A stretch of 34,389 nucleotides of DNA from Psammoneis japonica (lineage: Eukaryota): assembly GCA_008632985.1 (NCBI GenBank), contig QPGO01000389.1, positions 1 through 34,389 of the forward strand. Direction: 5' to 3'. A program made the translations under genes and the position numbers. The notes under the pieces were generated by a model. The model saw only the letters and a program-made list of their open reading frames with translations, ran no database searches and was not told the DNA's origin. Shown here one piece after another: positions 1 through 33,600 of this stretch. Numbering within the stretch: position 1 is the first letter of the stretch; each line of letters begins with the position of its first letter.

Positions 1-761
1 GCTGTGTTGTGTTGTCTGTTGGTGCGTCACAACAGTTGTTGCTGTGAATGGAGAAAAGGGGAGCTGGTTGATGCAGTGCATGCATCCATCCACAAAGATG
101 CACAGGAATGGTGGCATTTCTGTTGTGACATCCCGTTGCCCAATGCAGTTCCTGCACATTTTTTATGCCAGCAAACTTCAACCGTGGTGACATCTGGAAT
201 CACCACGGCTTGCACCGTGTTCTGATTCCGGAATCAGCCACAGCTCCGGTCACCGTGTCAATCACTTGCTGACTCTCATGATGCGGCAAGTGTGTCGCAT
301 GACTGGTTTTTTGGTCATTGTTCATGCACCAGTGAAACAATGCACTGTGATTTCACGTGGCTTCTGCGTGAAGAAAGTCACAATGATCGTTTTGCTTGCA
401 CATTCTGCATGATTCCTGCACAAAAACCAATGACTGCACACTTGCTGTTTGATTCTGTTCAAAAGTGACCCGCCCAGACGACATCGTTGACAGAAGAAGA
501 AACTGAAGCGGGTCTCCATGAAAGGCAAGAAGCAGCATTTTCCAACCGCGAATGGAGTTCACAAACTGGCAGACAGCTGTTCACCAGACTGCTTGTTTGC
601 GATTTGCAACAAGCGTTTGTCAGAACCAGGATTTGTTTGGCAACTGTCTTCGACTGCAAACCTGTTTGCAAACACGAAACACGAGCTGTTCTGTGGGCTG
701 TTAGAAACAGCTCGCGTGCACGCGATGACGCGTTGCTTCAGCCTTGTTTTTAAGCACGTGA

Positions 762-838
762 GTGCGGAAAAAGGGAGGGACTCGAACCCCCGACCTCGTC
801 CTGTGATTGGCTGAGCTCTGCCACTGAGCTTGCCGCAC
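762..838 (-). pseudogene. tRNA-like sequence (tRNA pseudogene or SINE head / Pol III promoter)
   Basis: Minus strand reads GTGCGGC-AAGCTCAGTGGCAGAGC-...-GGGGGTTCGAGTCCCTC-CCTTTTT-CCGCAC. It has an A-box/D-arm (GCTC..GAGC), a B-box/T-arm (GGTTCGAGTCC) and 6-bp terminal pairing GTGCGG/CCGCAC. The anticodon arm does not pair, so it is not a functional tRNA. Confidence 0.6.
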
Positions 839-1199
839 CTTTTGACAAGCCGGACCCGGAAGACAGTGACTTGCTCTGCTGCAGTGGAGACTGCTCTCTG
901 GCTGGCTGCCACTGCCAGCTGCTGCTGGCAGCAGCTGGTGAAGAGCAGAGAGATGCTGTTGCAGTGAGTTGTGTGCAAAAGTTGGAAGCCAGTTTGGTGC
1001 ACAAAAATCAGTTTTCCAGCATGCCGTTCTCTGAAATTTCGCCTCATGGCCGGCGATGCTCGCTGAAGTTTGCAAACATTTGCAAAAGGTGGGCAATCAA
1101 TCCATGATTGCAAACAGCTGTTCACAAGCTCAGCTTGCTCACTCTTCCTTGTTTTGCAGACTGTTTGTTTTGCGCAGAATTTCGCAGCTGGGAAACCCT

Positions 1200-1368
1200 T
1201 GACAGACATCCGAGATGGGGAGTGCACTCCCTTGTGTCGGACAGACTAGCATGGACAGCATGGAGAGATCCGATGATCTCTCCTTTGCTCACTTTCTTTC
1301 TCATCCAGTGCGCAATTGTCATCTGTCCTGGACATCCGTTAGATTGTCCCGATGCCGCCAGTCCGCAA
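1200..1368 (+). repeat. 5' LTR of A1 (~169 bp)
   Basis: Starts TGACAGACATCC; aligns end to end with 7933-8101 and with the reverse complements of 9366-9534 and 11865-12026. Confidence 0.93.
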
Positions 1369-1378
1369 GGTTGTGAGC
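1369..1378 (+). promoter_or_regulatory. Putative primer-binding site of A1 (half-tRNA-Met type)
   Basis: GGTTGTGAGC directly after the LTR equals GGTTATGAGC after one TA>TG change. It resembles the GGTTATG PBS of Drosophila copia, which pairs with the tRNA-Met anticodon loop. Confidence 0.6.
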
Positions 1379-1485
1379 AGCAGTGCGCTGTTCCTCTTCC
1401 TCTGTGCTCATCCATTGCAGTGCCTGTTGTGTGATTTGGCGACTTTTTCTTTGTTGAAATCGTCATCATTGTCACAGCCATTTTT

Positions 1486-1905
1486 NNNNNNNNNNNNNNN
1501 NNNNNNNNNNNNNNNNNNNNNNNNNNNNNNNNNNNNNNNNNNNNNNNNNNNNNNNNNNNNNNNNNNNNNNNNNNNNNNNNNNNNNNNNNNNNNNNNNNNN
1601 NNNNNNNNNNNNNNNNNNNNNNNNNNNNNNNNNNNNNNNNNNNNNNNNNNNNNNNNNNNNNNNNNNNNNNNNNNNNNNNNNNNNNNNNNNNNNNNNNNNN
1701 NNNNNNNNNNNNNNNNNNNNNNNNNNNNNNNNNNNNNNNNNNNNNNNNNNNNNNNNNNNNNNNNNNNNNNNNNNNNNNNNNNNNNNNNNNNNNNNNNNNN
1801 NNNNNNNNNNNNNNNNNNNNNNNNNNNNNNNNNNNNNNNNNNNNNNNNNNNNNNNNNNNNNNNNNNNNNNNNNNNNNNNNNNNNNNNNNNNNNNNNNNNN
1901 NNNNN
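1486..1905. other. Assembly gap (420 N)
   Basis: Run of N. By homology to A2 it should hold the end of the A1 5' UTR and the gag start. Confidence 0.99.
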
Positions 1906-3610
1906 TGATTCAGAGAACGACGATGCCACACATCTGTGTGTTGGGACTCTACGTTTCTGTTTCAGCCCTCGTTTTCGATGTTGTGATTGCTGGGATGACA
2001 TCTCCGATGATCCGCACCCGGATCCACCGACCACTTCGAGTTCTGCATCTACACCAGTTGCCACTGCAGGCCCCACTCCTGAAGACTTTGTCAAGGCCCC
2101 AGCTGCTCACTTGCCTGGTCCAAAACAGTTTGAGCAAGCTGTGACAAACGCACTGAAGAGCTCCACTCCCAAGGTGTCGTCTCCTGCACCGTCTGCCATG
2201 ACTGCTGCTGGCATGGCTTCTTCATCAACTGCTGCCAGTGCCACACACACCTTTAATCCGAAAGGACTTCCAAAGGATGCACTGGCCGCTGTCAGCGCAA
2301 GGAAGCTGGGAAAGCAGCACTTGGCAAATCCCTGGCACCCTGCAAGTCTGGAAACCTTTGTTGCGAGGATGGCACTGAGCGTCTCATCCTTGCTGATGGT
2401 TCACTCTTTGTTCATCGCACTGACTGGGACACAAAATCATTCCTTCGTGATCCTCTCACTTGTGATGACATCTCTCCTCAAGGAATCCGTGCATGGTGCA
2501 TTGCTGCAACCCAACAAGCCTCGGCTTGTGGCACATGTGTGCATCCTCTGTGGTGTTTCATCAAGGATGGTGGAAATTGGGGTTTCACTTGTGGCAATGA
2601 TCCCACCGATGATCTGCCTCTCCGGATGATGGCAGCACTTGACCGAATGAAACTGACCATCTTCCAGCACATTCAGAAAGTTGGAATTTTTCCGGCAGAC
2701 TCCAAGTGCCCTGACATCATTCGCCAATGTTGTGGTGATGGACATGCAGCTGTCAAGATGATTCTCTTTGACATCCCACCAATTTGGATGAAGTGTCTGC
2801 ATGAGTTGATTGAGAGCCACCTGCTGTCATGCTCTGTTCAGAGACTGCCTTCAGCTGCGAGCTGTCATCTCCAATGTTGATGCATCTCTTGATGACCCTG
2901 GCAAGCTTGACATTTTTCTCAGCAACACCCGCCATGGCAAGCACCTTCACCGTAAAACAGCGGACGCCCGGGAAGACAAGACCAAACAACACAAGTTCAC
3001 CCAGAAGAAGATTGTTGAAACCGTCAGTGCAATTCTCAAGGAACCGGATGGCCCAGCTCTGCGTGTCAAGGACCCTCCCAAATGTCCTCCACATTGTCTT
3101 CACACTTCGCCTCCTCCTCCTCTCACAGCTCCTGTCCGCGGTCTTGAATTGCTTCCCCAGGATGAAGTTTCTACTCCGCCTCCAGTGATTGAAGAGTCTC
3201 CCAAGGAATCTGACTCTCCTCCTGTGGAAGAACCTACGGAAACTGTGGAACATTTTGTAAATGAACTTGCCACTGTGGATGTTCCCACAGATGATGATGC
3301 ACAAGCCCTCCATGGTGTCTACAAGGCCTGCATCTGTGGGATCAAGTCCTCGCCTGCCATTGCACAGAACCGTCCATGTGTTGTTTGTGGCAACAACCAC
3401 TTGTTCCATGAGTGTCCTGTGTTGAACAATGCTGAGCACCTGCGCACCCATCTCATTCGGTTCTCCCAGTTTCTTCAACGTGACCAGCGTGCTCGTGATG
3501 CACTTCAGTCTGGCACGGCCAAGAAGGATTTTTCCTGGGGCCATTGTTGTGTTCGGACAAACAATGCTGCCCATTCTCCTCCAATCCGAAAACTCCTGCA
3601 AGCGGGGTGA
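1906..3610 (+). pseudogene. gag: A1 gag region (frameshifted)
   Basis: Position after the PBS; homology with A2 gag (PTPEDF..LPGPKQFE..NALK, HTFNPK.LPKD); knuckle-like CVVCGNNHLFHEC near 3376-3416. Confidence 0.75.
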
Positions 3611-6600
3611 CTGTGAAAGAGGGTCCAAACGACTCGTTGCCTTCTGCTGATCCTCCTCTTTCACCTGTCTCATTTGCCACCCTTCTTTCGAGCTCGACGA
3701 AGGCTGGTGCTCCTGATCCCAAGATGATTCCTGATGATGACCCTGGCAATCACAATCAGGGGAGGGAATTCGATCCTCCTACATTGGATGCTGATGCTCC
3801 ATTGTCCACTGATCAAGACCAAGCATTTGAGCATCTTGATGTGACTGACACCCAGCATTTGTCGCCTCTCAGTGCCGCGCGCATCTCCCCGATTTTTTCT
3901 CCCCCGGAGTCACCTGCGACCTTTGCATCCTTGGCTGCCCCAGTTGTTCCCATCAATCATGTGCTTCGTGATTCAACAACACATTGTGCACAGATTGATG
4001 CTGGTGCTTGGGTGTCCTGCACAGGGGACAAGAACCTCCTCCACGCATGTGCTCCTTTTGGACCGGATGACCCATGCCCTTTGAAGATGCTTCCGGCTGC
4101 TGAAGGCTCTGATGCGGTTCCTCATGGCTTTGGATGCCCACAGGTGCCTGCAGACAACCCTGAAGGCTTTCTTCTCGTGCGTGCTTTTTGCCATCCCAGT
4201 CTACGATCCACTTTGATTGATGGGCGTGATTTTGCGTGGGCTTCTGGTTTCAAATCTCAGTCCACTCGCTCCGAGCTCCTTGAGAAGACATGTGCCAATG
4301 GCACTTGCACTTGCACTGCTTCCACTGATGCACAAGCGGCAGTTGTCCATGGTGTGCTTCAACATGGCAAGGCATTCACACAACCCCTGGTTCCTCCGTC
4401 TCCGTCTGGTGTCCCCTTGACATCGACGACCCCTGACTTGTCCTTGGTTGATGACATTGATGATGCATGTCAATGTGCAGTCTTTTTTGTCAACATCCAA
4501 CAAGGTCCATCTGATCCCTTGCTGATGGATGCTGAGCCATTTTTGATGCAGTGTGACTCGGCTCCGTTGTCTGCCCCTGCTCCTGTCTGCTCTCTCAAGG
4601 TTGAGACTGAACATCTTCTGTGGCATCAACGCCTTGGACACCCCAGTGATCACTGCTTGCACAATGCTCACAAGTGTGTCAAGGGCGTCCCCAAGTTCCG
4701 TCATGCCAATCCTGTCCTTGACACATGCCCTGCGTGTGTCCAAGCCAAGCAAGTCAAGACTCCTGCTGGACCGAACACGACTCGGAAGGCGACCCAACCA
4801 CACCAAGGTCTCACTGTCGATTTTGCTTTTGCTGGCCAGACTTCCAAGAATGAAGCCCGCAAGGTTGATTGTCTTGGACACAATGGTGAAACATGTTGGA
4901 TTGCTGTCTATGATCATCACATGCGGATGCTCCATGGCGCAGCAAGGGTTTCAAAGGCCAGTCCTCTCAAGTGGCTTCGCCGATTCTTGGATCGACATTC
5001 ACGGAATTGTCGTGACAAATGTGTGTTCATGGACCAAGGTGGGCAATTGTGCAAAAACCCCAAAGTTCGTGACCTCTTTGAACAAGAATTCCAGCATGAC
5101 ATCTGTCCTTCTGGTGCTGGCACATCCAACCAATGTGGGCCTGTTGAACCCTCACACCCAACTGTTGAGAACGCGATTTGTGCAATTTTAATTGGTGCCA
5201 ACCTTCCGATCCGATTCTGGCCCCATGCATTTTACCACCACCTCCGTGTCAAGAATGCCACTCCTGCAAAAGATCAAGATGCGGCACCCATCACTCTTGC
5301 TGCCGGAAAGGTCGAAGATTTTACTGCTCTGAAGACTTTCGGATGTCGAGCATGGTCCAAACGCCACTGCTCGTTCTGCTGCCTTCCGGACCAATTCCAA
5401 GAAGGGTGTCTTCCTTGGTTGCCTTCCCAACACCCTCAAGAATGTCATGTGGTGGGATCCTGAGACTGATGAAGTCAAGATGGCCAAGCATGTGCGTTGT
5501 GATGAAGGTGTGAATGACCCATTTTTGGATCAACTCCCTCCCAATGCTGTCCATTTACAGCGTGTGGAAAATGGTCAGCCTTTTCCAGCTGAAACACAGG
5601 ACACCACCGTTCCCATGTTTGTGTCTTCATCGAATCCATTTGCTGCGACCATCACATGCACCATGAAACGTCCTCCAAAGGACCCCACTCATGGTTTTGG
5701 ATTTTCTCAGTGTGCACCAATGGACCGTGTCTGTGTGTCGGAAATCAAGCAGTGCAGTCCTGCGGCTTCATTGTTTTCTTCCCTCCGTGCTGCTTGCAAC
5801 AAGATTGTGGGTGCACATGTTGTCTCTGTCAACAAGCGTGAAGTCTTTACTCCTTCGGATGCTGAAGAGGCCTTGTCTCAGGTCTTTCATGACAAAATTC
5901 TGACTTTCGAGATTGCTTTTGCGCCGGAACGACGATTGGATTCTCGCACTCTTAACAAGGCATTTGAGGAAGCGGAGTCATTTGAGCCGGACACTGTGGA
6001 GGACGACTCTCATGTTCCTGAACTTGCTTTGGAGGATGTGCGATCTGTTGTGGCTCTTCTCTGTCCCGATGATGATTTTTCGGATGAGGCCATTCCTGCG
6101 GATGCATTTTATGCACATCTCAATGCGATCAGCTCTCGCTCACTCACTCCGGAGGAAGCTGCTCTTGACCATCTCACCCGTGCCAAGCTTCGTAAACTTG
6201 ACACATGGCCTGAATGGGAAGAAGGCAAGCAGCATCAACTGGACCAATTTTGTGCCCTGGGCATGTGTGGTCCTCCGCAACCACGTCCCCCTGGCGCGAA
6301 TGTCATGCATCCGCATTGGGATTGCATGGCAAAGCCGGATGGCCAACGTTGCTCCCGACAATGTGGTGATGGTTCCAAGTCGGCAATGCCGGCCTTGCAC
6401 AAGTTGACTTCCACCCATTCGTCGTGAGTGGAACGTTCTGTCGAAAAGATGTTTTTCGCTCTCAGTGCGGCTGTGTTGCATCGTGTCTTCGGCGGCGATG
6501 CACGGGATGCCTGCGCTCATTCTCCTGGCCCATCCCAACCGGTTTTTGTTGCTGTTGATGATGCATGTGCCGCCTGGCATGAAAAGCGATTTGGCAAGAA

Positions 6601-7845
6601 AGCACCCCGCCATCATGTTCTCCCACTCAAGCACGCTCTTCAAGGCCATCCTGAAGCTGGTGTCCTCTGGGAGAAGCACGTCAATTCGATTCTCACGGGT
6701 GAGAAACTTCTTTTCCACAACATTGCTCATGACAAGTGCATCCATTCCGGTGAACATGATGGTGTCAAGGTCCTCCTCCTTCGTCAGGTCAATGATTTTG
6801 CTCTTGCTTGTCCATCTGAAAAGATTGCGAAAGAGATCTGCGACCATGTTGGTGGGGCTCTCCAGATCGAGAATGAGGACACTCCTCCCTTCAAGTGTTT
6901 GGGCTTGGTTGCTTTTTCAGTGGCATTGATGTCATTCAAAATGACGACTCAATCACTGTCAACGTTGCCAGCTGCCTTGACCGTGTTTTCAAGACCCATG
7001 GTTGGGATGCTCCCGATGCACATGAGTCTGATTCTGATTTCAAGGCCGCCCCTGTTCCGGTTGATTGCATTCCTGATCTGCACACTGCTGAAGGTCCTGA
7101 AGAGGGTTCACCCAAGCATGACACTCTTGCTGAGTCCCAAGGATTCTCGCGCCATTCTGTCTTGGGTGAATTGGTCTTTGCCTGCTCCTGTTGTCGTTTG
7201 GACATTGGATGTCCTGTTGTCACCTTGTCCAAGTTTTCCAAGGCACCGGCTGAGCTCCATTGTGATTCACTCAAGTGCATGGCCAAGCATTTGCGGCACA
7301 CCAAACATTGGGGACTGACCTGTGAGAAGTCTAAACACGATCCCGGCCCACCTCCTCGCGATTTTGAATGGCTTGAGGATGACCCATCTCTCCCGGATTT
7401 TCCTCGTGCTGTTGACCTTTTCCAACTTCTTGGATTCATTGATGCGGCACATGGCAATGAACTGTGGTGTCGCTGTTCTGCTGCTGGCTGTGCGCATGTC
7501 CTTGCTGGTGCTGCGATTGACTGTCGATGCTGCACGCAAACGATTGCCGCTGCCAGCTCCACGGAAGCTGAGTTCCTCGCGGCTGCAACTGCTGCGAAAC
7601 AGACCCTGCACCTCCGCATGGTTCTGGAAGAATTGGGTTTTCTCCAACGTGATCCCACTCCCTTGCACATTGACAACTCCTCTGCCACCCAGATGATCAA
7701 CAACAAGGTGCCTGCGGAGCGATCTCGTCATGTTGATGTTCAACATTTTGCTGTCCAAGACTGGCGTGACGCGGGCAAGATTGTCACTCGACACATCCCG
7801 GGTGTCATTGACCCTGCTGATGCACTGACCAAGGCCGTGGGTTGT
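3544..7845 (+). pseudogene. pol: A1 pol: protease, GAG-pre-integrase, integrase, PDZ-like insert, RT, RNase H (disrupted)
   Basis: PR QIDAGA; LLWHQRLGHPS..CPACVQAK; IN VDFAF/MDQGG/LKTFGC; RT ALQGHPE..LRQVNDF; RNase H FIDAAHG/SSTEAEF/IDNSSA/RHVDV/ADALTK. End coordinate approximate. Confidence 0.92.
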
Positions 7846-7932
7846 TTTGTTCTTTGCCACTCTGGTCCTCTCTTTTTATTCGGATCATCTCTTTCTTTCT
7901 TGTTGAGCATTGCATTGCTCATCAGGGGAGGG

Positions 7933-8101
7933 TGACAGACATCCGAGATGGGGATCACACTCCCTTGTGTCGGACAGACTAGCACAGACAGCATGGAGAG
8001 ATCCGATGATCTCTCCTTTGCTCACTTTCTTTCTCATCTAGCACACGATTGTCATCTGTCCTAGACATCCGTTAGATTGTCCCGATGCCGCTGGTCCGTA
8101 A
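7933..8101 (+). repeat. 3' LTR of A1
   Basis: Preceded by PPT AGGGGAGGG; followed by TSD ACCCT. Confidence 0.93.
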
Positions 8102-8413
8102 ACCCTGGCACAAGAAGGGCGATCAAGTCCTGTGCCGAACGTCAAGGCCAGCTGGAACAAACTGGAGAAGGTCAGTGCCATGCACAAAAGAGTGTCTCAG
8201 ATGTTGTGAGAGGTTCAGAGCCAGTCTCTGAACCGAGGAGTGATTTGAAATCTGGAAAACCCTGGCACAAGAAGGGTGGTCAAGTCCTGTGCCGAACGTC
8301 AAGGCCAGCTGGAGTAAACCACAGCAGAGAAGGTCATGCCATGCACAAAAGAGTGTTTTGGATGTTGTGAGAGGTTCAGAGCCAGTCTCTGAACCGAAAA
8401 GTGATTGAAATCT
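8100..8413. repeat. Tandem duplication, 2 x ~157 bp
   Basis: Units start AAACCCTGGCACAAGAAGGG at 8100 and 8257. Each holds the hairpin GGTTCAGAG-CCAGT-CTCTGAACC (8212-8234, 8373-8395). A1 inserted at the start of unit 1. Confidence 0.9.
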
Positions 8414-8581
8414 ATGTCGAAAAGCACGAAGCAGATTTCAAAAAAATCATTCCCGTGTGAGAGACAGTTCAGTCACTGGTTGACTGACTGTTGACATTCA
8501 GCCATGACAGATTTTCTAACAGCGACCGTGCTGCGGTCCACTCCTGTCAGTTGTGCACAGTGACATCCCCAGCCCACGAAT

Positions 8582-9044
8582 CCTGGTCTCACCACAGTGA
8601 GGCCAGGTTTTCAGTGACCCACAACAATGCATGGAACCGGTCATTTGATGCCTGAGTAGACCGAAGGAGCCAAAACATGCTCAAATGAAAGTGTCTGGTG
8701 GTTGAAATCGTTTGAACAACCTAAAGCAGCTTTCCATGATGCTTCCGGAAGCGAGAGGTGTTTCAGGTCTAAATGTGACCCTGGCCTCAGATGTGTGAGA
8801 CCATGATTTGTGCTGGAAAACATGTGGAGTTCCACTGGAACAATTTTTTGGAGCTGCCTTTTTTTAAATGGTTTGTTCATGCCGGATGTTGCGTGAAGCA
8901 TGCCAAAAGCAATGTCACACAGCATGCGACAACGACGATGCAAATAAAAAATCCTGGTCACACATTTGTGAGACAGGGGGAAGAATGACCCGAAGGATGA
9001 CTGTGACTGAAATTTCTGCGCTGTCTCACACATGTGAGACCAGG
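8582..9044. repeat. Four dispersed copies of a ~26-bp palindrome, consensus CCTGGTCTCAC-N4-GTGAGACCAGG
   Basis: Copies at 8582-8607, 8780-8805, 8953-8977 and 9021-9044, each with a few deviations from consensus. Confidence 0.75.
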
Positions 9045-9365
9045 AACGGACTAGGGACATGGGTGCATGCGAGCAGACACACTGCAGTCTCTCTTCATTC
9101 TAAGACCCTGTCCAAACTGGACCAAACCTGTGTGCATGCCTGACGTCATAGAGCCAAAAATGAGCCTCTTCGAAAAAATTGGTGGTCATTGGCCCTGTGC
9201 ATGATGCAATTTTAGGCCGTGCGTGCTTTGGTGAGAAACCTTGTTCTGGTCAGAACAGGGTTCCTCGGAAATGGCACACCCCAAACACCATGCCCCCAAG
9301 TCGACACACGAGATGACCCAGAAGTGGGGTGTTTTTGATGCAATGAAAGTGCGCATGGCTGCATC

Positions 9366-9534
9366 TTGTGGACCAGCAGTGTTGGGACAATCTAACGGAC
9401 ATCCAGGACAGATGACAATCATGTGCTAGATGAGAAAGAAAGTGAGCAAAGGAGAGATCATCGGATCTCTCCATGCTGTCTGTGCTGGTCTGTCCGACAC
9501 AAGGGAGTGCTCTCCCCATCTCGGATGTCTGTCA
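9366..9534 (-). repeat. 3' LTR of A2
   Basis: Reverse complement of the A1 LTR; adjacent PPT (CCCTCCCCT on + strand). Confidence 0.92.
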
Positions 9535-21595: not shown

Positions 21596-24500
21596 CACGG
21601 AACTTAACGGCCGCACTTGCCGCCGCGTTGATGACCACAATGTCATTTGCTCTGCCTCCGCTCATTGCTCCACACGCACTGGTGCTCCAGTTGATCGTGG
21701 AGCCAACGGCGGCATTGCTGGTGACGACGTTCGCGTCATTGCATGCACCTCTTGCCAAGTCAACGTTCAGGGCATTGACGACCATCAATTGGTGGACATC
21801 CCCATTGTCGCCGCTGGTGCCGTCATTGAGACCCAGCGTGGTCCCGTCATCGCCATCCTCCATCAGCGCCGCATGCACGGGCAAGGGCAAGACCATTCAT
21901 TCCTGTGGCCAGCTCAAATGGTGCAAACAGGATGTCAATGATCGCTCTGTCAAGGTGCCCAACGGCTTGCAACGCATTGCCACTCCTGATGGCCATGTCA
22001 TCCCCATTGACATCAAGGGCGGCCTGCCTTGTGTTGCCATGTGACCTTGCACTGACGCCGAATGGGACACCCCACCCCACATCATCCTCACCGGTGATGA
22101 CACATGGGATCCTTCCATCCTCGATCACTCTGTCACTGACGACGACCAGTGGTGCGACGCAATCTCTGACCTGCAGGACGATCCCACTGCCAACCCATTT
22201 GACGAACACAGCAACTGCTGTCATCGTGTCGTTGTCAACAAGACCATCATGTCCGCTTCCTTGTCTGCTGATCACGCGTCCGCCCTCGATGACCACCTCA
22301 TTCCGAATGACGACGTGTTCACGAGTGTCACCTGCACGCAATTGACCCCAAGGACGTCGACGTTCCGCCCCCGGAGCGCACTGTGCAGCCCAAGGACCCC
22401 CCCTGCGAGTCTCTTCAGCCTCACTTTGGCTTCCCACCCACCGATGCGGTCCGTCGCACTTTTGACTGCACCATGCAGTGTGCCCGCATGCCCGCCGGTG
22501 CACACCTTAGGAAGGCCCACAAATCACCCAACCCTGCCCTTAATGTGCACCGCCACAACGAGCCTGTCGCCACTGATCCATTTGTGCCGACACCCCGGCT
22601 GTCGACTCTGGTTGCACCAGCGCCCAACTGTTTGTTGGCACCGAGTCTACCGTCACTGACGTCTGCGGCACCAAAACGGACAAAGAGTTTGTCAACACAC
22701 TCGAGGATCAGATCCGTGAGCGTGGTGCTCCATCCAAACTCATCAGCGACCGTGCTCAAGTTGAGATCAGCAACAAGGTGCTCAGAATCCTGCGAGCCCT
22801 CTTCATCTCCAGCTGGCAAAGTGAGCCTCACCAGCAACACCAAAACTTTGCCGAACGTCGACACCAGACCGTGAAGCGCATGGCGAACACTGTCATGGAC
22901 CGCTTCGGTTTGCCCGCCCACATGTGGCTGCTGGCGCTCATGTGCGTGTGCTTCATGCTCAACCATGCAGCATCCCCACGTCTCCACTGGCACACGCCCC
23001 TCGAGACTCTCACTGGCTCCACCCCGGACATCAGCCCATTGCTTCGCTCTCACTGGTGGGAACCAGTGTACTTCCACCTCGATGACTCTGATTGGCCGTC
23101 CGAATCCCGTGAGTTGTGTGGACGCTTTGTTGGCATTGCCAAGCACGTCAGCCACCAGATGACCTTCAAGATTCTCTCTGATGAGACTCAGAAGATCCTC
23201 TGCCGGTCCAACGTACAGTCCGCCACCACCGATCCCGCCGTTCGAAACCTGCGTCTTGATCCTCCTGATGGGGAGCCACCTGAACCCATCATTAAATCTC
23301 GCCATGACGACAACCCCGTCGATTCACCCGATGGGGAGATCAGGACACCCAAGATGCCAGTTTTTGATCCGCAAGACATCATCAGATGCACCTTCCTCAT
23401 GCAGCCACAAGAGGACGGACAACGCCACAGAGCTCGCATCGTCAAGGCCGTCGAAGACCACGAATGGAAAGTGAACGGCAACCCCGAGCTCACCAAGTTT
23501 GTCTGCTCTGTCAACAATGACGAACACGAGGAAGTCCTGGCCTGCAACGACATCATGAATCACATTGAGTGAGAAGACGAAGACACTGCTGTTTGGAAAT
23601 TTCAACGCATTGTGTCACACGAAGGACCTCTGAAGCCTCATGACCCAACCTGGGATGGCTCAAGCTACAACATTGTGCTTGAATGGGAAAGTGGGGAGAT
23701 CACGTCCGAGCCTCTTGCCATCATCGCCAAGGACGACCCTGTCACCTGCGCCATCCATGCACGAGAGAACGGACTTCTCGACACTGATGGCTGGAAGCGG
23801 TTCCGCACCATCGCGAGGCGCCAGAAGAAGCCACTCCGCATGGCCAACCAAGCCAAGCTTCGCTCCTTCTGCACTGCACCTGCTACAAGCACGGATGCGA
23901 AGTTCCCCGGAGCTGCAAACACGCCATGTCACTAGACGAACGCAACGGCAACCGCAAATGGGGAGACGCAACTAATCTCGAGATGGACCAACTCGATGAA
24001 CATGAAGTCTTTCATGACTGCAGGCCCTCCGAGTCTTCCACTCCTCCTGCGGGACACAAGAAGATCCGAGTGCACCCAGTGTGCGACGTGAAACACGACG
24101 GCCGCCACAAGGCACGACTGCAGCCGATGGGCACCTCATGGACGTACCCATCAACAGTGTCCACTCCAGAGTGGTCTCCCTCCGTGGCCTTCGGCTGATG
24201 ATTTTCCTGGCCGAACTCAACGAGTTGGAGACATGGGCCACCGACATTGGCAATGCCTGCCTTGAAGCCACCACCAAGGAGAAGCTGTACATTGCAGCTG
24301 GACCCGAATTTGGCAAACTCGAAGGCCACATTCTTGTCATCCACAAGGCCCTGCATGGACTGCGCAGCTCCGGCCTCCGCTGGCACGAGCGCTTCGCCGA
24401 CTGCCCACAAGCTGAAGGTTTCTTCCCCTGCCGCGCCGAACCTGACATTTGGACGTGCAGGAACGGCGACCACTGCGAATGTGTTGCTGTTCATGTGGAT

Positions 24501-25589
24501 GACCTCGCCATTGCCATGAAGGACCCTCAATCTTTCGTCGATGCTCTCACGGAAAAGTGCAAGTTCAAGCTCAAGGGTGCGGGACTGATTGAGTTCCACC
24601 CAGGCTGCGACTTTTCCCGGGATCCTGACGGCACCTTGTGCCTGTCTCTGCGCAAGTGCATCGAACGTGTGGTTGACAGCCACACACGACTGTTTGGGGA
24701 GAAACCTGCCACCAATGCCCTGTCACCTCTGGAGAAGGGTGACCACCTTGAACTGGACACTTCCAAACTGCTGGGGCCCGATGGCATTCAACAGTTCCAG
24801 TCTCTTGTTGGTTCACTCCAATGGGCAGTGTCCCTTGGTCAAATTGACATCACCACGGCCATCATGTCACTCTCTAGCTTCCGAGCTGCGCCCCGTCAAG
24901 GCCACTTGGATCGTGCCAAATGCATCTGTGGGTGCCTCTCCAAGATGCGACATGGCGCTCTCCGCGTTTGCACGGAAGAGCCCGACCATTCGGATCTCCC
25001 TGCTCCGGCCTGTGAATGGATGCATTCCGTGTGCGGCGAGGCAGAAGAGATGATCCCGAAGGACGCTCCACCGCCCCTTGGCAAGTTCGTCACCACCACC
25101 CACTGCGTCGATGCAAACTTGCACCATTGCATGCTCACTGGACGCTCTGTCATGGGAATGCTCCACTTCCTCAACAAATTCCCGGCTGATTGGTTCTCTA
25201 AGAAGCAAGCCACCGTGGAGACTGCGACCTGCGGGTCTGAATTTGTTGCCGCAAGGACTTGTGTTGAGCAGATTGTCGACCTGCGCATCACCCTGCGCTG
25301 CCTCGGCATCCCGATCCGTGACATCAGTTGCATGTTCGGTGACAACAAGTCAGTTGTAGACAGTGCCACCATCCCGCACTCCAAGTTACACAAGCGACAC
25401 ACCGCACTGTCATTCCACCGTGTGCGCGAGGCAATTGCCTCTGGTTGCCTTGAGCTCCACTTCATCGAAGGCTCCCGCAACCCTGCTGACATTCTCAGCA
25501 AGCATTGGGGTTGCTCCAAGTCTGGGACCTTCTCCGCCCCCTCATGTTTTGGAACTTCATTCCATCCGAAGTCGAATCTGTTTCTGTGA
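21592..25589 (+). pseudogene. pol: C pol: protease, integrase, chromodomain-like region, RT, RNase H (disrupted)
   Basis: PR VDRGANGG; IN SEPHQQHQNFAER; RT DIGNACL/KALHGLRSSG/VHVDD; RH VDANL/VETATCGSEF/GDNKSV/NPADILSK. Confidence 0.93.
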
Positions 25590-25610
25590 CTCCTCAAGCA
25601 AACTGGGGAG

Positions 25611-25886
25611 TGACAGGATTTGAACAGGATTTGGGTGCGCGCGAAATGTCGCGCGCTGTTTAGTTCACCGCGCACAGTTTTGTGTGCTTCAGTTCCGCAC
25701 GTTCGCGCGTGATGCAGTTTGCTTTTGAGCCACTCGGCTCACAAGAATGATGACAGCAGCCCGACTGTGCCGACTTGCATGTCCTTCGGCTCCTGCAACG
25801 GGCTCTGAGCGGAGACTCATCTGCTGTTTAGACAGCAGCAAGGAGTCATTGTTTGAATTCTTGCCATTTGCCTTCAATTTCTGTCA
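25611..25886 (+). repeat. 3' LTR of C
   Basis: Preceded by PPT; followed by TSD AGTCG. Confidence 0.95.
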
Positions 25887-27743
25887 AGTCGGCCGGAAGC
25901 TGGGAACACCAATGTCCCAAGGTGGCATGGAGCAGCGGAGATGCAAAAGGGTGGAGCAAGGTGAGCACAACCTGAAGTGGTCCAAGTGGCACGTCCTTGA
26001 ACCCCAACTCAAAGTCGAATTCTGCGTGCCACGCTCCAGGATCCAGGAAGAGGGTGCTGGCCTGCTGAGTCGGCGCAGGAGGTGACTCATCCTTCTGCCC
26101 ATGCTTGGCAGCACCGTGAGTGGTCGACCAACAGACGGCACTTGGCACACCAGTGCCAAGTCTTGCCCTGAGCAACCTTGGACTCAGGTTGTCCGGGACG
26201 AGGTGCGACCTTCTTCCAGTTGCGCGTGACGCCGCCGTTGCCGTTGCCTCCGTTGCCACCTTGACTCCCATTGCCACTGGAGCAGGTCCTGCCCCTTCCT
26301 CCTTGTCCTCCACCGTTTTGCCCAGGGTTTGAGCCGCCTTGGTTGTTTCCAGCACCCTCACTGGACTTGTTGGGACAGTCACGTGCCCAGTGTCCGAGCT
26401 TGCCGCAGTTGTTGCACGGAGAGCTTTCCGGAGTCTTCTTGCGGGGAGCAGCCGTCTGCTGGAAGAGAGCATTGAACTGGGCCTGAGTGAGTGGAACTCC
26501 AACCGTTTGACAAGTGGCTGAGGGATCAAGCACCAGGTTTCCAAAGGCTCTGGGAGTGGCTTTGGAGTCTCTCGCGTGCTTGACAGGATCCCACTGCATG
26601 TTGTTCTTGAACAAGCGGCAGCGGTCCAGGATCTTTCCAATGACTTGAGAGCAGGCAAGGTTCCTGGACGCAAGGCATCGTTTCGCGTCCGTTTTAGACT
26701 TGTGCGCTGTCTCAACGAGTGCTTTGCTCAAGTTCTCTTTCATGGTGCGAAGGGCGTGCTTGAACTGCTGACCGTTTTCGCCATCCCCACCAGCTTCCAG
26801 GCAAGCGTTGACCAAGGCAAGCGTTAGCTTGTGGTCGCACTGACCCGCAACATCTGAGCGTTCGATGGACGTGCTCTGGAGGATCACAACGAGAGCCATC
26901 CAGACTTTCAGAAAGCAATCCGACTCTTCCCATCTCCAGATCCAGCTGTGCAGCTAGGCCAGCCTCCAAGGAGTTCTTGAGAAACTCAGCAGCGTCCCTG
27001 TCATTGGATGAATCGCAGGAGTCACACTTGGCGAGTTGAGGTGCGACAAGACGGGCGACACTCGATTTGGAATGCCGAGGATGTCCTTCAACGCAAGACG
27101 TCACGGAAGTTGAGTCCTCGGGGTCCTGCAGGTAAGTTGCCGCATCCAAACTGCAGTCCTTGAGATGCTTCATCACGTTCTTCTCAAAGGTTGCAAGATC
27201 TCCCTTCTTGTCAAACTTGGTTGAAAGTCCAGCAACGCGGCAGGCCTTGCTCTTCTGGGTGGAAGAAACGTGGTGGGAGAGATGCTGATTTGGAGACGTT
27301 GGACTGGAGTTGGGAGTTTCCAATCCGGACCAGTCAGCCTTGGGTTTCCCACCGGTCCAAGCAACTTTCTCAGTGGAACCAATGGTGACAACCCCCCCCA
27401 TCTTAGCAGCCTTGGGTTTGTAGACTTTCGTCTTCGGCATCGCCACGGCTGCCATGGCAGCCACAGCCTGAACAGTGCGACGTTCGTCTTCCGTCACACC
27501 AGAGCCTGCAGCGGGCTCGTCATCGTCATCATCCGAGTCATCATCTGAGTCGTCCGGGCGATGTTCCAAGGGCGGAACAGGGTTGTCCTCTGGGTTGTTA
27601 GGGTCCTGAGGTGGTGGATTATCCTCTGGTGGAGGTTGATCCTCAGGAGGCTGGTCCTCGAACACTTCGGGGTCGTCAGCCATGTCCGACAGCGCGCTTG
27701 AAGCCATCGAGTCGGACCAATCGTCTGGGACATTCTCAATCAA
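25887..27743 (-). pseudogene. gag: B gag (frameshifted) with CCHC zinc knuckle
   Basis: CNNCGKLGHWARDC (CX2CX4HX4C); AWTGGKP and ND..A.EFL.NSL motifs; Gly/Asn-rich linker; second WHWCAKC..WSTTH motif. True start uncertain. Confidence 0.85.
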
Positions 27744-28017
27744 AGAGTGCGAGCTGGAGAACTCTCTTGGGTCTCAGGAGGGCCATGGGGTGGAGTGGGG
27801 CCTGAGATGGTGCACGTGCAAAATCAACAACAAACCTTCTGGCGGAACCAGCCATTCAGCTGACGGAGTCAGTCGCAGCACTTGACATCAAGAGCGCGGA
27901 GCGCAGCTGATGAGGAGCACTGACGGCATCAGAGCCATTGACAGGGTTGCTCTGGTTTGGGCGTCCCCAACCAGAAGCGCAGAACGTGTTAAGTTGCCCC
28001 AATTGGGCGAACCAACC

Positions 28018-28490
28018 AGTCGAAGCTCGCGTGTCGACGCAAGCTCCGAGTGCCTTCCCAACGCATCGACTGGATGTCCACTCCAGATCGACACCTCAGG
28101 CAGAGTGCAAGTAGATGGAATCCACTGATAGCAGCAATGAGCATTTAGTCTTTCACAAAAGTGCTAGTGACCAAATTACAAGCTGCATGGACTGAATCTG
28201 CTGAGTGCACCCAAACAGAGAGGTTGATCCGCAGGTTTGTGCCAGTGACCAGCACAAACTTCAGGGTCAACCACATTCACAACAATCATCCAAATGCTGC
28301 TGAACCAATCTGTGGTTGGTCCAACATCTATGCAAAGCCTATGATCTCCAAAGCACCGCCTATGATCCCCAAAGCATTCGGCTTGAGAATCAAGTCGACG
28401 TGGCGCGAAAAGAATTTCAACAAGAATTCCGACTGACGGAAGTACAGACACAACAGAGAATCTGGGTCGGTGGACAGACGAACCACGACT
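28018..28490 (-). repeat. 5' LTR of B (~473 bp)
   Basis: Aligns with 13113-13582; retains many TpA sites lost in the other copy. Confidence 0.93.
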
Positions 28491-28540
28491 ACAGAGAAGC
28501 GTGTCGGGGCCGAAGAAAAAGAACAAGAAGTCGCGCGACG

Positions 28541-29491
28541 ATGACGATGGTTGGAAAGTCGTTGGGCGACAACTCCTCGCCCGCCATGGCTGAACTCACT
28601 CGGGAGGAGTTTCCGTTCCGAAAGAAAGAAAACAACTTTTCATTCAATCACAAGGACTGTATTGGGCTTTTCCTCAATCTAGTGCTATGGCTTTTTCTTG
28701 TGTGCCTTTGTCGCCGAGACTTTTTATTGGCACTTCTGTGGCTGATTGTGCTCGTTGTTTGCATCTGGTGGAAGCCAAGTCGTGTTCTTTCCATGGCGTC
28801 TCTTTTCTTTGCCTTATTCCTCCGGACGCCTGAATTTCTCGACTTGAAAACTCAATTCCCACAACATGCGCTTTTCGAAGATCCCGCGACATTTGCAATG
28901 CTTCAAAAGGAAGTACGAGCGTACTTGGCCCGGACCAACGGTGGGAAGGATGTAGCCGCAACCAAGGATAGCTACGGCAGAGAGAACGAATACATTGGCA
29001 GTGGCGGTTGTGGAGAAAACCAGTGGCGCATCTTGTCCATCAAGGTAACGCGTGTCCACATGAAAGGGGCAAGCGAAGAATTTCCCACTCTGTGTGCACT
29101 GTTGGAGAAGTGTCCCGACGTTATTGCCTGCGTCCTTTCCATCCTCGAGCCGAAATGCAAAATCCCAATGCACGTTGGATACTATAAGGGACTGATGAGA
29201 TTCATGGTCCCCGTCATCGTGCCAAAAGACAGAAACAACCTTTGGTTAGCAGTGAACGGAATCAAGTACCATTGGGAGGAGGGCAAGACAGTTCTATGGG
29301 ATGACACTTTCCCCCACGCCGTCTACAACACCACGGACGAAGTGCGTGTATTGTTCTATTGCGACGTATTGAGAACCCACAACATGCCGTGGTGTGCTCG
29401 TAAGTTGAATCAATTCATGGTCTATTTGTTTGAGATGAGCGGCGTTGCGGAAGCAGAAATCAAGAAAAACGAGGTCAAGAAAAGGATATGA
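28541..29491 (+). CDS. Membrane-anchored aspartyl/asparaginyl beta-hydroxylase family (Asp_Arg_Hydrox / LpxO-like) Fe(II)/2OG dioxygenase, ~316 aa
   Basis: Open frame. Motifs LSILEPKCKIPMHVGYYKGLMR, YHWEEGKTVLWDDTFPHAVYN and RVLFYCDV; N-terminal hydrophobic helices; normal Tyr and TpA content. The ORF-track extension to 28316 lies inside the LTR, so the first ATG outside the LTR was chosen. Confidence 0.88.
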   Translation: MTMVGKSLGDNSSPAMAELTREEFPFRKKENNFSFNHKDCIGLFLNLVLWLFLVCLCRRDFLLALLWLIVLVVCIWWKPSRVLSMASLFFALFLRTPEFLDLKTQFPQHALFEDPATFAMLQKEVRAYLARTNGGKDVAATKDSYGRENEYIGSGGCGENQWRILSIKVTRVHMKGASEEFPTLCALLEKCPDVIACVLSILEPKCKIPMHVGYYKGLMRFMVPVIVPKDRNNLWLAVNGIKYHWEEGKTVLWDDTFPHAVYNTTDEVRVLFYCDVLRTHNMPWCARKLNQFMVYLFEMSGVAEAEIKKNEVKKRI

Positions 29492-29649
29492 ATTTCTTTC
29501 CAAAACCAAATCCCCGGTCGGGGCTGTTTGGAGATTGAATTAAAAATGACTAGGTGGGCGGGTTAACTTGCGACTTCAAAATTTTGTACTAGCAGAACCG
29601 ACGAACCCTGCAAGGGAGTCTACTTACCGTACCTACGGCCACATAGTTG

Positions 29650-32600
29650 AGTGGCCAAAGGCGTGGTTTAAAGAGGCGTCGGTGCGATGTGATGTGTGGG
29701 GTGAGGATGAACCGTTCGGCACAGACGCGTGAGCGGCAGAGCATGAATGACGCCCCCGCCCAGTGGATGGGATGCCACCAAAACAAAATGGTAAATGGAA
29801 CGATCCCCAGCAGAGCGTCAACCAACAGTTCAATTGCAACGCAGTCTCTTGCATCGTTGAGCATGGAGTCTATCACATGTTGGTGACCAAGGCAAGGAAG
29901 ATGCCACAATTGTTCGTTGCGCGCCACCGTCAAGTTGAAATTGACTGGAACTCGTGCCTTGTGTTTGTGCCAAATTTCTTCCTTTTTGCACTTGTTGCAC
30001 CCGTTCGGTCATTGGGTCGGTTGTTGTGTGACTCTCGCAGTTCAGGTTGGTTCTGTTGCAACTGCAGGGTGCTTGTGAATGCTGTTGGCACTGGGGCACA
30101 AGGAAGAGGTTCTGCAGTTCGAAAGCCATTGTCGACAAGAGCAAAAGAGCTTCTTGTTCTGGAAGATCGGAAGATCATCAAAAAGGTGTGCACTCTGCTC
30201 TTTAACAATCCCTCAAATTGAGTCTTGTTTCCACCTCCCTGCAACAAACAACATCTGAGCAATGCAAACCACAAGAATGCCCCTGTTCACAATGATGATC
30301 TTGTTGATGAGATGAGCCCATTTTGCATCGTTCAACTCTTGAAGAGCCTCAATGAAGACTTGCTTGAGCTGGCTGAAGGTGACAGCATCAGATCCAGCTG
30401 CCTTGTGGCAGTTTGTCAATGGCAAACAAGCCTGAACATCAGCAGCCCTCTTCTGGAGGTTCTTGTCTTTCTTGGATCCAGGCACCTTGACTTGGGCAGT
30501 GATGGGAACTTGAGTGGTGGTGCCAGCAGCTTGAGTGCCATTTGCAGGATTGGCGACTTGGCCCACAGGAATTGTGGCACCTGATGCCTGCCAGGTTGTG
30601 TTGGAATGTGTCTTGATGGCAGTTTGGACACAATGACACATGTCCAAAAAGGGTGCAACCACCTGAAACCATTGTCAGCAAAGTTGCAGACCAATGAAGT
30701 CATTGACAACATGGAGACCATCGGCAGCTTGACAAAAAAGAGTTCCACCTTGGTTGAGGTGGCCAGCCAGTGTCATGCTGCCGGATGTGAGTGACATCTT
30801 TCTGAAACATGTCAAGCATGGCAAAATTGGTCACTGTTGCAAGGAAATTTCCTCCAGGATTGAATTCCAGGAGGCAGGAGTGGCCTGGAGGGATGGGAGT
30901 GCCATCAAGAGAGAAGCTGTGACAGGCCAATCAAAAAGTGAAGGTGCCAGAGAGATGCAGGGCATCATGAACATTGCCATCCTCAAGTGGCGGACCTGCG
31001 ACATCATCTGGAGGAGTCTTGGCTCAAGGTAAGTTGAAAATGTGATGACATCAGCTTGACACACCAGAGTGTCAAAGTGTCCCCCAAAACATTGGTGAGC
31101 ACCCAACCTGGGAACAACTTCTCTGACAGTGTTGCAAAAGTTTGAAACAAACTTGACTTCATTGCCACCATTGATGAAGGGGCAGGCTTTGCAGCAGGAG
31201 TGAAGCAGCCTCTGCAGAACACAAGGAACTGGTCAAACTGACCACATGCATGATTGGCAAGAGTTGCATCAGTGTGTCATGGCAAAGGACATGCTTGGGC
31301 TGGTTGAGCACAAACTTGGTTTGTGTGGTCCCAGACTGTGCAAACAGCACTTGACAGTGGAGGCTTGGCCACACTCAACAGTGGCAAAGACCATGGCAGC
31401 CATGGCAGGATGGGAGACAAACAGGAGACTTGAAAGGTGGGTGGGGAAAGGCAAAACCAAGGTTTTTGGGAGAGAAACAAGGTTTTTGAATGAGAAATGA
31501 AGCTCAGAATGCAGAAGAAATCATGCCAAAAAGTCAGAGTAAGTTGGTAGAAATTGCTTCACATGATCAGAATTAAATGAGCAAGGCTCTGCAAAAGTGA
31601 GAGCCATGTAGAGCAGGTCAAAATTTTGACTGACAGAAAGAAAATGGGGGAGAAATGATCCTGTCCTGTGAGAGATTTGAAATCTTGGAAAGTCGTGGTC
31701 ACAATTTTTCTTGCAGGAGACCACAGAACATGCAAATGATCTGCCAGTTGCATCAGCAATCAAACATTTGCAGAGGCTCCTGGATCCAAGAGATGTGTTT
31801 GAAAACATGTGTGGAGCAATGTCGGAAATTGTGCAGAACATTTTTTGTTGACACCATTTTGAGAAGAATTGTCCTCTCTGAAAATTCAAAAACAGAGCAT
31901 GTTCAGAACACAATGTGACACAAGAACATTTCATGTGGAACTGTTGCAATGGTCAGAATGTGTTTTCTGCATGAATGTGCATTGAACAGACATGAGATCT
32001 GAAGTCTGAAGACCGCAACAGCAGACAAGAAGAAAAAGATGCAATGCAAAGGCTGATTTTTCACAGTGACCTGACAATTGCAAGGGAGCAGACCCAAACA
32101 ATGCCAGGCCCCATTGACAGCATGCTTGCACTCTGACATTGAGATCAGACAAAACAAGGTGGGCTGCACTGCAATCTCAATCAACTGGCTTGCAGAGGTC
32201 ACCTGGATCTGGTGCGTTCCAAGAGGGCATTTGCAGTGGTGGAAACATTCTCCCAGCCCACCAAAACCAAAACAAAAACACCGAACTGCATTGTTTGCAC
32301 TTTGACAAGAAAAGTCAGAAGCAGCAAGAGCAGTGCAGTGCAGTCATCACGTGCAAGAATTAGCTTGGCTTGCAGAATCTCTCCAGATCCAAGATGACAG
32401 CTGATTCATCATGGCACATTGCAGGCTGATCAAGACAATCAAGCTAAACCATGGCATCAAACAGCACCACATGCAGCTTGTGGGTGATTGCACGAGGCAT
32501 GCCACTCAACACAAGCAATGTTTTCAGCATTGTTGGTCCACATCCATGACTGGAAAAACCGGATGTGGCCAGACCTTTTGCAGCTTTTGATGCCTGGCCA

Positions 32601-33600
32601 TGCCATTTGCAAACCTGCACCAGGAGTGCACAGACTCTGCATGACCATCTGAAGTGAACTCCATGATCAAATGTGCCAAATGAAAAGTTCACCATGACGG
32701 CTCCATTTTTGCTGGTGGCTGCAACCAGCACACCTTCAACAACAGCTTGCATGAGAACAAAAGACTCTCCTTCCTGTCGTTTGGATGAATGCTGTTTCAT
32801 TTTGAGGTGGAGGTGACTGGTGTGATCATTTCAAAGTGAAAAGAGCACAAAAATCGTCTGCCACTGGCATTTTGTTTGTTTGCCATCATCTTGACTGGGA
32901 CTTTTTCATGCTCAACATTCTTGTCTGAGATCTTCCATGCATGCCATTCTGGGCACTCGAGTGATTTTGATGAAATTGCATGGGGACTTGTGGCATCTCA
33001 GCAATGAATGTGAGCATTTTGCACCAACACACTAAACATGTCTCGCATGTGCTCTTACGAGTTGTGTCTTGCCACATTTTGTTGTTCAAATTTTGGATGG
33101 AAAGTGAATGGATGCTTGTGTCTGAGAAATGAAGCAATGAAAAATCTCTGCAAGCAATGGAGACTGCATCAAGTCAAGTTTCCTTCCCACCAGGAGTTCA
33201 TTTTGTTGCTTTGTGGATTGGACGATTGCCTCCAGCTGGGGAACTTAAAAAGGCATTTTTGTCTGCATGTGATTGCCTTTGTCTTTGAATGATCTCCCAA
33301 GTTCACAAAGTGCAGATCTTCACCTTTTTTGTGTGACCACAGAAGACACCTCAGCTTCAGTTGCTGGTGCGAACTTGCGTGGTGGCACGGGCGGGAGCTC
33401 GCCGTTGCGGCTCCGTTCTTGCCCACAGCAGCTGCACCTTCTTCAAGAATGGCTTGCATGAGAACAAAAGACTCTCCCATCTGTTGTTTGGTTGAATGCT
33501 GTCTGATTTTGAAATGGAGGCAAGCAGCAAGTTTGTTTTGAACGCACAAGAGCCACGACTGGCAGAACCTGGCACGCCGGCGATTGATTCGTGGCCCCCA
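29650..33600. other. Unclassified, heavily degenerate TpA- and CpG-depleted region (probably old repeat relics)
   Basis: Same dinucleotide signature as the retroelements, plus strong CpG loss; fragmented minus-strand coding-like stretches around 29900-31400; no diagnostic motif recognised. Boundaries approximate. Confidence 0.5.
32698..33520. repeat. Diverged ~115-bp direct repeat (32698-32813 and 33408-33520)
   Basis: Identical 26-bp core GCTTGCATGAGAACAAAAGACTCTCC at 32745-32770 and 33452-33477, with similar flanks. Confidence 0.8.

Follow-up and report, generated by a model that had tools for sequence, protein, structure and literature searches.

What has removed the TpA dinucleotide (TA) from a cluster of retrotransposons that lies directly beside genes in which it persists? 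The question is raised by contig QPGO01000389.1 of the Psammoneis japonica assembly GCA_008632985.1, which we analysed at its full length of 34,389 nucleotides and call the window. It consists of a nest of four long terminal repeat (LTR) retrotransposons, named here A, A', B and C, beyond which lie two host genes separated by a gene-free block (Table 1). The analysis confirms that in the four elements and the block about nine tenths of the TA steps gave way to TG or CA after insertion and that the neighbouring genes were spared. As an overall explanation we favour, with a probability of roughly 0.8, a DNA-level mutator that converts TpA to TpG or CpA in silent, transposon-rich chromatin of a diatom-like genome. 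Such a mutator would replace A:T by G:C at either base of the palindromic TpA step, and would kill elements by turning tyrosine codons into Cys or His codons (as in the change of the catalytic motif YVDD to HVDD) together with other TA-dependent changes. The process may serve as a genome defence.

Depletion was measured as the ratio of observed to expected dinucleotides (O/E), both over whole regions and in 1-kb bins, and the nest (positions 1-28100) was counted without the run of N at 1486-1905. The nest contains 134 TA where 1521.5 are expected (O/E 0.09), with TG at 1.59, CA at 1.46 and CG at 0.67. The remaining ratios are close to or above one (AA 1.18, TT 1.11, AT 0.92, TC 1.13, GA 1.19), so that TC and GA are not depleted. 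The block at 29872-33600 has 11 TA against 262.6 expected (O/E 0.04), with CG 0.23, TG 1.80 and CA 1.76, and the three spacers of the nest, pooled, have 28 against 229.0 (O/E 0.12; CG 0.55). The elements resemble one another, with O/E values for TA and CG of 0.075 and 0.56 in A, 0.082 and 0.61 in A', 0.086 and 0.69 in B without C, and 0.105 and 0.80 in C. TA is five to seven times commoner in the host genes than in the elements: 37 were found against 76.6 expected in the hydroxylase region 28541-29700 (O/E 0.48), and 36 against 60.0 in the end of the glycerophosphodiester phosphodiesterase (GDPD) gene at 33601-34389 (O/E 0.60). A preliminary description of this DNA had called TA nearly absent from all repeat DNA, as it is from the elements, and normal in the host genes, which overstates the latter, since their values are lowish beside the median of 0.72 among intact relatives of element C (see below).

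The missing dinucleotides can largely be accounted for by their expected products. In the nest, a deficit of 1388 TA and 643 CG (together 2031) stands against an excess of 1803 TG and CA; in the block, deficits of 252 and 156 (together 408) stand against an excess of 361. In both regions the excess of TG and CA thus matches about 89% of the combined deficit. The same loss has reshaped the stop codons. Counted on both strands, 1448 of the 1657 stop triplets in 1-28100 and 29872-33600 are TGA, as against 69 of 137 in host DNA, and the window carries 52 open reading frames (ORFs) of at least 150 amino acids, in all frames. Long false ORFs arise in dead elements because the loss of TpA erases TAA and TAG stops.

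The direction of the change follows from comparison with intact relatives. We aligned the elements with full-length polyproteins of intact family members (76 for element C, 35 for A and 135 of 150 for B, from which 15 Tyr-poor relatives were left out to keep the consensus uncontaminated) and took a column as conserved where at least 80% of the relatives agree. Element C keeps 3 of 40 conserved Tyr (20 are now Cys and 12 His) and 612 of 694 other conserved columns; element A keeps none of 21 (10 Cys, 8 His) and 347 of 423; element B keeps 2 of 10 (5 Cys, 3 His) and 335 of 380. Pooled, Tyr is retained in 5 of 71 columns (35 Cys, 23 His) and other residues in 1294 of 1497. Fifty-eight of the 66 changed Tyr columns read Cys or His, the Cys codons being TGY and the His codons CAY (Y, pyrimidine; R, purine). 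In the host hydroxylase, 6 of 12 conserved Tyr are kept, with one His and no Cys among the changes, and the difference in retention between elements and hydroxylase is significant (p = 0.0008).

A further control comes from outside the window, in 49 metagenome loci that encode relatives of the pol of element C. Forty-six of the 49 have a TA O/E of at least 0.5, the median of 0.72 being that of these 46 intact loci, and Tyr is retained, with no more than one change to Cys or His, in 45 of the 48 that have at least five Tyr columns. Since intact family members carry Tyr, and not His or Cys, at these positions, TA is the lost state. The catalytic YVDD motif reads HVDD in the window, at 24492 in element C and at 14706 in element B, and a working element could not carry HVDD. 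Neither YVDD nor LYGL occurs in any frame of the window; LHGL is present at 24351, 14722 and 14835, NACL at 24252, TCGSEF at 25227 and RCLK at 14281. These motifs had been pointed out in the preliminary description, along with Tyr counts that we reproduce: 0 in 287 amino acids (13771-14634, minus strand), 1 in 502 (24081-25589) and 2 in 639 (3544-5463), against 9 in 316 in the hydroxylase. Its reading that TA is lost and that both strands are hit is borne out, as Tyr has become both Cys and His within the same ORFs whose intact relatives have Tyr.

When and on what molecule the changes occurred can be read from the LTR pairs, because the two LTRs of one insertion are identical at landing. Across the four pairs we counted 63 substitution events, of which 53 are transitions. 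Thirty fall at former TA sites, comprising 16 doublets (CA in one copy and TG in the other) and 14 single changes (TA in one copy and TG or CA in the other); the rest are 17 of CpG type, 6 other transitions and 10 transversions, 6 of which lie in the doubtful alignment of the A' pair. A CA/TG doublet represents one ancestral TA that was hit on opposite strands in the two copies; therefore, the chromosomal DNA was what changed, on either strand and once the element had integrated. Doublets of this kind also separate the window copy from other genomic copies represented in contigs rebuilt from reads. Little or no TA loss appears to predate insertion, as the visible sites and the expected invisible ones together approximate the TA content of intact relatives.

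The doublets also have a polarity with respect to the window. The left LTR has TG and the right LTR CA in 13 of 16, whatever the orientation of the element (p = 0.02), and the left LTR of element B has 13 TG and 2 CA (p = 0.007). Strand-coordinated patches, of the kind produced as APOBEC-like clusters, were considered and rejected: the order of Cys and His is mixed along A, B, C and a half-mutated metagenome locus (L007), with a number of runs close to random. The TG/CA skew in 500-bp bins is mildly over-dispersed (chi-square 97 over 67 bins).

The mutator appears to be confined to TA among the contexts of adenine. In element A, a T precedes 17 of the 20 inferred A>G changes at first codon positions (Ile>Val, Thr>Ala and the like), against a background of 178 in 444 (p = 5e-5); in element C this holds for 4 of 7. 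Each of the four Leu>Pro changes found in A and C has the codon CCA, the product to be expected of CTA, and transitions outside TA and CG make up only 6 of the 63 LTR differences. The excess of A>G is therefore specific to TpA. Flanking bases matter as well. The 145 TAs that survive in the erased domains are distributed as 71 YTAR, 33 YTAY, 34 RTAR and 7 RTAY, which differs from the 9771 TAs of the 46 intact relatives (17%, 34%, 16% and 34%, in the same order; chi-square 133) and from the 74 in host DNA of the window (15, 18, 21 and 20; chi-square 30). By symmetric class, ATAT has no survivor and ATAC/GTAT one, and CTAA/TTAG and TTAA are enriched about three-fold. The mutator prefers RTAY, with ATAT the most sensitive, and spares YTAR. 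The flank also influences the outcome: in the window and three metagenome loci, TAC codons became Cys 42 times and His 19 times and TAT codons 14 and 23 times (p = 0.003), the window alone giving 24:8 and 10:15. A model that places the preference on the base following A fits these Tyr outcomes exactly as well as one that places it on the base preceding T.

For the chemistry, our first choice, which we hold at a little short of an even chance, is that an ADAT/TadA-like enzyme deaminates adenine in DNA to inosine. Among the rivals, oxidation of thymine comes nearest, although we think it unlikely. A TET/JBP-type dioxygenase would oxidise the T of TpA to 5-hydroxymethyluracil (5hmU) and then to 5-formyluracil, and mispairing with G or misrepair would give T>C. 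Oxidised thymine is mutagenic towards T>C, and the signature is symmetric, so that T>C and A>G account for it equally; a 5hmU opposite A is only weakly mutagenic, which counts against this route. According to the accessible text of one study, a dinoflagellate TET/JBP homologue makes 5hmU, which helps to silence transposable elements, and the replacement of thymine in C. cohnii favours the dinucleotides TA and TC (PMC11572971). A combined preference of that kind is not seen in the nest, where TC and GA stand at 1.13 and 1.19, and we found no report of 5hmU for diatoms in the literature searched.

Error-prone repair of the Pol-eta type, recruited to heterochromatin and acting at WA motifs (W, A or T), was one of the candidates in the preliminary description, and we now consider it very improbable. 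TA is indeed one of the two WA motifs, but AA, the other, is not depleted (1.18; TT 1.11). Pol-eta spectra include many A>T and A>C changes, whereas transversions account for 10 of the 63 LTR differences, including the 6 in the one doubtful alignment, and 58 of the 66 changed Tyr columns are Cys or His.

No more credible is A-to-I editing of the retrotransposon RNA before reverse transcription, by an ADAR- or ADAT-like enzyme acting at an A preceded by U. Retroelements do pass through an RNA stage, and a preference of ADAR for U upstream of the edited A is noted in the accessible text of a recent preprint (bioRxiv 10.64898/2026.01.13.699255). Both LTRs are, however, copied from one template, and RNA editing is refuted as the main cause because sister LTRs differ at 30 former TA sites, 16 of them as doublets. 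A single ORF bears hits on both strands (35 Cys and 23 His), the spacers and a block that lacks pol homology are erased too, and the visible and expected invisible sites would already account for a normal TA content at insertion.

The sequence itself is supported by the data from which it can be rebuilt. Contigs that we reassembled from a public run (X1) match 28.5-34.4 kb of the window with 0-13 differences per piece; contigs from a second run (X2) lie only on the two host genes and those from a third (X3) only on element C, the parts left uncovered being uninformative. Three of the 48 environmental copia contigs are independent support for the erasure of Tyr to Cys or His: L007 (TA 0.31; 25 columns with 11 Tyr, 8 Cys and 6 His, half mutated), L027 (TA 0.27; 18 columns with 1 Tyr, 7 Cys and 8 His) and L030 (TA 0.13; 16 columns with 2 Tyr, 7 Cys and 5 His). 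A public copia polyprotein of 2061 amino acids, P0416, has a single Tyr, with 3.7% Cys and 4.5% His, and with seven others it makes up the Tyr-poor proteins among 96 relatives of element B of at least 300 amino acids. Hypermutated copia polyproteins are thus already present in public protein libraries. That there is no mutator at all, and that the pattern is an assembly or polishing artefact, a native TA-poor composition or selection against TA, has a practically negligible probability: although the read runs probably come from the assembled sample, the rebuilt contigs agree with the window and the three metagenome contigs and P0416 have the same pattern, intact relatives have normal TA and Tyr, HVDD is incompatible with a working element, and non-coding DNA is erased on both strands.

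Which DNA is targeted was addressed through copy number and through the edges of the erased domain. Depth was taken as the summed depth of contigs placed at a 90% cut-off. It is 60-112 over the genes and the block (70-112 over the block alone), about 470-800 over element B (roughly 8 copies) and 41,674-113,764 over element C, which corresponds to the order of a thousand copy-equivalents at a likeness of at least 90%. Family C has been very active recently, yet its copy in the window is dead. High-copy, low-copy and apparently single-copy DNA are all erased. On the hydroxylase side, the limit of the erased domain falls within the LTR of element B that is nearer to the gene. At 16 former TA sites in the B pair, the right copy keeps TA at all four in 28329-28443 and at 3 of the 12 further in (Fisher p = 0.019), and the left copy keeps it at 1 of 16.

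Beyond the hydroxylase, TA is normal over about 380 non-coding bases past the stop codon, the last TAs being at 29792 and 29871. It resumes at 33603, about 335 bases beyond the stop codon of the GDPD gene, and the block fills the space between the TA-normal 3' flanks of these two convergent genes. None of the 29 ORFs in the block has a significant Pfam match (best E = 0.027), and the block has no look-alike within the window. At single-copy depth, with no Pfam match and no look-alike, its status as a repeat is not supported; the earlier statement that all repeat DNA is depleted holds for the elements and is too strong for this region. The erased domain ends at the TA-normal flanks of the host genes, not at repeat edges.

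As one limit of the erased domain falls within a repeat, and as some of the erased DNA is of single-copy depth, we infer that targeting follows the state of the chromatin, presumably silent, rather than repeat homology. This agrees with what the accessible text of the preprint cited above reports for the chlorarachniophyte Bigelowiella natans, where the main target is single-copy and silent. Of the repeat-targeted A>G mutator that had been proposed, the context-specific change of A:T to G:C on both strands stands; targeting of repeats is not supported, and silent chromatin fits better.

Erasure was fast. In the LTR pairs without A' (left out of the rate estimate because transversions make up 6 of its 14 differences and probably stem from a hand-extended end of the alignment), 7 differences in 919 aligned columns are of neither TA nor CpG type. 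With a background of about 0.004 per base per copy, and a fall in TA O/E from about 0.72 to 0.075-0.105, or about two events per site, TpA loss would by a rough estimate be 250-300 times faster per site than background substitution. Decay of CpG to TpG or CpA runs in parallel and is slower than the erasure of TA, since in the youngest element, C, CG is still at 0.80 and TA already at 0.105. Element C is the least decayed in both TA and CG, as its younger age, indicated by its nested position, predicts.

Several points weigh against the explanation favoured here. The process is read from the end state of the sequence alone, and the enzyme, the modified base and the new mutations are predictions. 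A>G is indistinguishable from T>C on the other strand, so that adenine deamination and thymine modification would fit the sequence equally well. Enzymes of the ADAT/ADAR type are reported to prefer G after the edited A; in the window, the sites of highest sensitivity are those where T or C follows the A. The probable origin of the read runs in the assembled sample means that they are not independent support, and the three erased metagenome contigs could come from one species that is also that of the window. The targeting of chromatin is drawn from one window, in which the 90% cut-off would give single-copy depth even to a repeat whose TA and CG changes are saturated, and the block may be such an old repeat.

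The closest known system is that of B. natans. In the literature searched, the signature is described only in one 2026 preprint, and a full-text search returned no report of TpA hypermutation in a diatom; the preliminary description, which knew of no named system, is corrected on this point. According to the accessible text of the preprint, mutation-accumulation lines of B. natans undergo TpA hypermutation of integrated DNA of nucleocytoplasmic large DNA viruses (NCLDV) and virophages, and two silent viral inserts acquired 231 new mutations, of which 230 are A>G or T>C, the latter all stated to fall on TpA (Mettrop et al., bioRxiv 10.64898/2026.01.13.699255). The larger insert, which is the main target, is single-copy and transcriptionally silent, and the authors propose ADAT-like adenine deamination, with a candidate identified from sequence and structure only (10.64898/2026.01.13.699255).

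As far as that text goes, the two cases share a restriction of the changes to TpA, where they are nearly only A>G or T>C and yield TpG or CpA according to strand, in silent foreign DNA beside normal genes. They also share a long-term depletion of TpA with enrichment of CpA and TpG (in B. natans including coding sequences with reverse-transcriptase domains) and a large excess over background, about 1000-fold there and an estimated 250-300-fold here, which we roughly take to be of the same order. The cases differ in lineage, with a chlorarachniophyte (Rhizaria) there and a diatom-like stramenopile here, and in target, with viral inserts measured there and LTR retrotransposons and the block here. 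The TpA ratio is 0.45 there (NCLDV insert) and 0.04-0.12, near saturation, here. New mutations were measured directly in B. natans, and a raised rate of them, episodic between lines, would mark a process of that type, whereas the window presents an end state only. The preference for RTAY over YTAR and the parallel decay of CpG are not mentioned in the accessible preprint text.

Other systems are less similar. Like the mutator proposed here, repeat-induced point mutation (RIP) is a transition-only, dinucleotide-specific hypermutation that inactivates transposons and spares neighbouring genes. RIP, found in Neurospora and other Pezizomycotina, needs duplicated sequence and a premeiotic stage. 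It makes TpA from CpA, in contrast to the TA of 0.09, TG of 1.59 and CA of 1.46 found here, and acts on cytosine, whereas adenine or thymine is changed in the window. As to its dependence on duplication, the erased domain here has its edge within the outer LTR of B and takes in DNA of single-copy depth, with the proviso that saturated repeats would escape the 90% cut-off. Decay of methylated CpG has the same products, TpG and CpA, is confined to the transposon domain, and is present here too (17 of the 63 LTR differences; CG 0.23-0.80), but a CpG process cannot remove TpA, and it is the slower of the two in the window. The APOBEC3 and ADAR enzymes act on cDNA or RNA in the replication cycle, on one strand and before or at integration, unlike the post-integration changes on both strands described here, and APOBEC gives G>A, not A>G. 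The likeness to such editing of animal retroelements (PMC4866542) lies in deaminase-driven, context-specific hypermutation that becomes fixed in genomes. Dinoflagellate 5hmU, as far as the accessible text of that study goes, is likewise a transposon-directed base modification in a lineage of the SAR group (stramenopiles, alveolates and Rhizaria) and prefers the T of TA, but it is an epigenetic mark and not a mutator, and its TC preference is not mirrored here (PMC11572971).

With a saturation-level signature in diatom-like retrotransposons, and with the same signature in environmental contigs, it seems likely that SAR protists have the process widely and that it is not peculiar to one alga. 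We tentatively raise the possibility, in its full form somewhat unlikely, that diatoms and chlorarachniophytes share an old defence: a natural DNA adenine deaminase that is guided to silent chromatin, rewrites RTAY to RTGY or RCAY in vegetative cells, quickly disables transposons and integrated viruses, and is widespread in marine protists. To the question of mechanism the window adds action after integration, the preference for RTAY, a speed far above that of CpG decay, and edges at gene flanks, and the half-mutated L007 could be used to learn the order in which sites are hit. Were the agent a natural DNA adenine deaminase, it would be a cellular counterpart of the laboratory adenine base editors and of direct interest for genome editing. 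Of more immediate practical concern, gene finders will call false Tyr-free proteins in dead elements, polluting gene sets and protein databases.

The features of the window are collected in Table 1. All four elements have perfect 5-bp target-site duplications (TSDs), and the Pfam copia domains found in the nest are gag_pre-integrs and RVT_2. In element A, tblastn matches to 35 polyproteins cover 2371-7899, with the gag_pre-integrs domain of Pfam, and the closest named relatives of its polyprotein belong to two pennate diatoms, Fistulifera solaris and Cylindrotheca fusiformis, for which reason we call the genome diatom-like. Just after its 5' LTR, the assembly has a gap of 420 N at 1486-1905. 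Directly 3' of its 3' LTR is a tandem duplication whose two copies are 88.7% identical. The interior of A' is without pol homology, and its ORF at 10391-11437 has no Pfam match. Homology to the polyprotein of element B runs from 27485 to 25903 and resumes from 18132 to 13732, and because it breaks off and resumes at these points, element C is placed as nested in B.

Table 1. Features of the 34,389-nucleotide window, in order of position.
Feature	Position	Strand	Evidence and remarks
TA-erased spacer left of element A	1-1199		TpA composition
Element A, complete copia-type LTR retrotransposon, dead	1200-8101	+	LTRs 1200-1368 and 7933-8101, 169 bp; TSD ACCCT
TA-erased spacer	8102-9365		Holds short tandem duplication 8100-8253 / 8257-8413
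Element A', short, with A-family LTRs	9366-12026	-	LTRs about 9366-9534 and 11858-12026; TSD GCATC
TA-erased spacer	12027-13112		TpA composition
Element B, copia-type, split by element C	13113-28490	-	LTRs 13113-13582 and 28018-28490; TSD ACAGA
Element C, copia-type, nested in B	18221-25886	+	LTRs 18221-18496 and 25611-25886, 276 bp, TG..CA; TSD AGTCG
Edge of the erased domain, where TAs survive	28112-28490		Inside gene-proximal LTR of element B
Host gene, Asp/Asn beta-hydroxylase family, intact ORF	about 28541-29491	+	PF05118, E = 1.4e-27; 116 homologues
Gene-free block, TA and CG erased	29872-33600		Between 3' ends of two convergent genes
End of host gene, GDPD family, runs off the window	33938-34387	-	PF03009, E = 2e-9

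The ORF of the hydroxylase as listed from 28316 begins within the LTR of element B, and the coding sequence is likely the shorter one given in Table 1. A spill-over of TA erasure into this gene was considered and is not supported, as its first three conserved Tyr columns are lost but read Trp, Ser and Gln, not Cys or His. The insertion of element B lies some 50 bp before the likely start codon (28491-28541), and the upstream region of the gene is now an LTR. TA is absent from 28491-28659, at the 5' side of the hydroxylase, a segment that is also CpG-rich, and the junction at 28401-28600 has almost no TA and is rich in CpG (19 against 13.9 expected).

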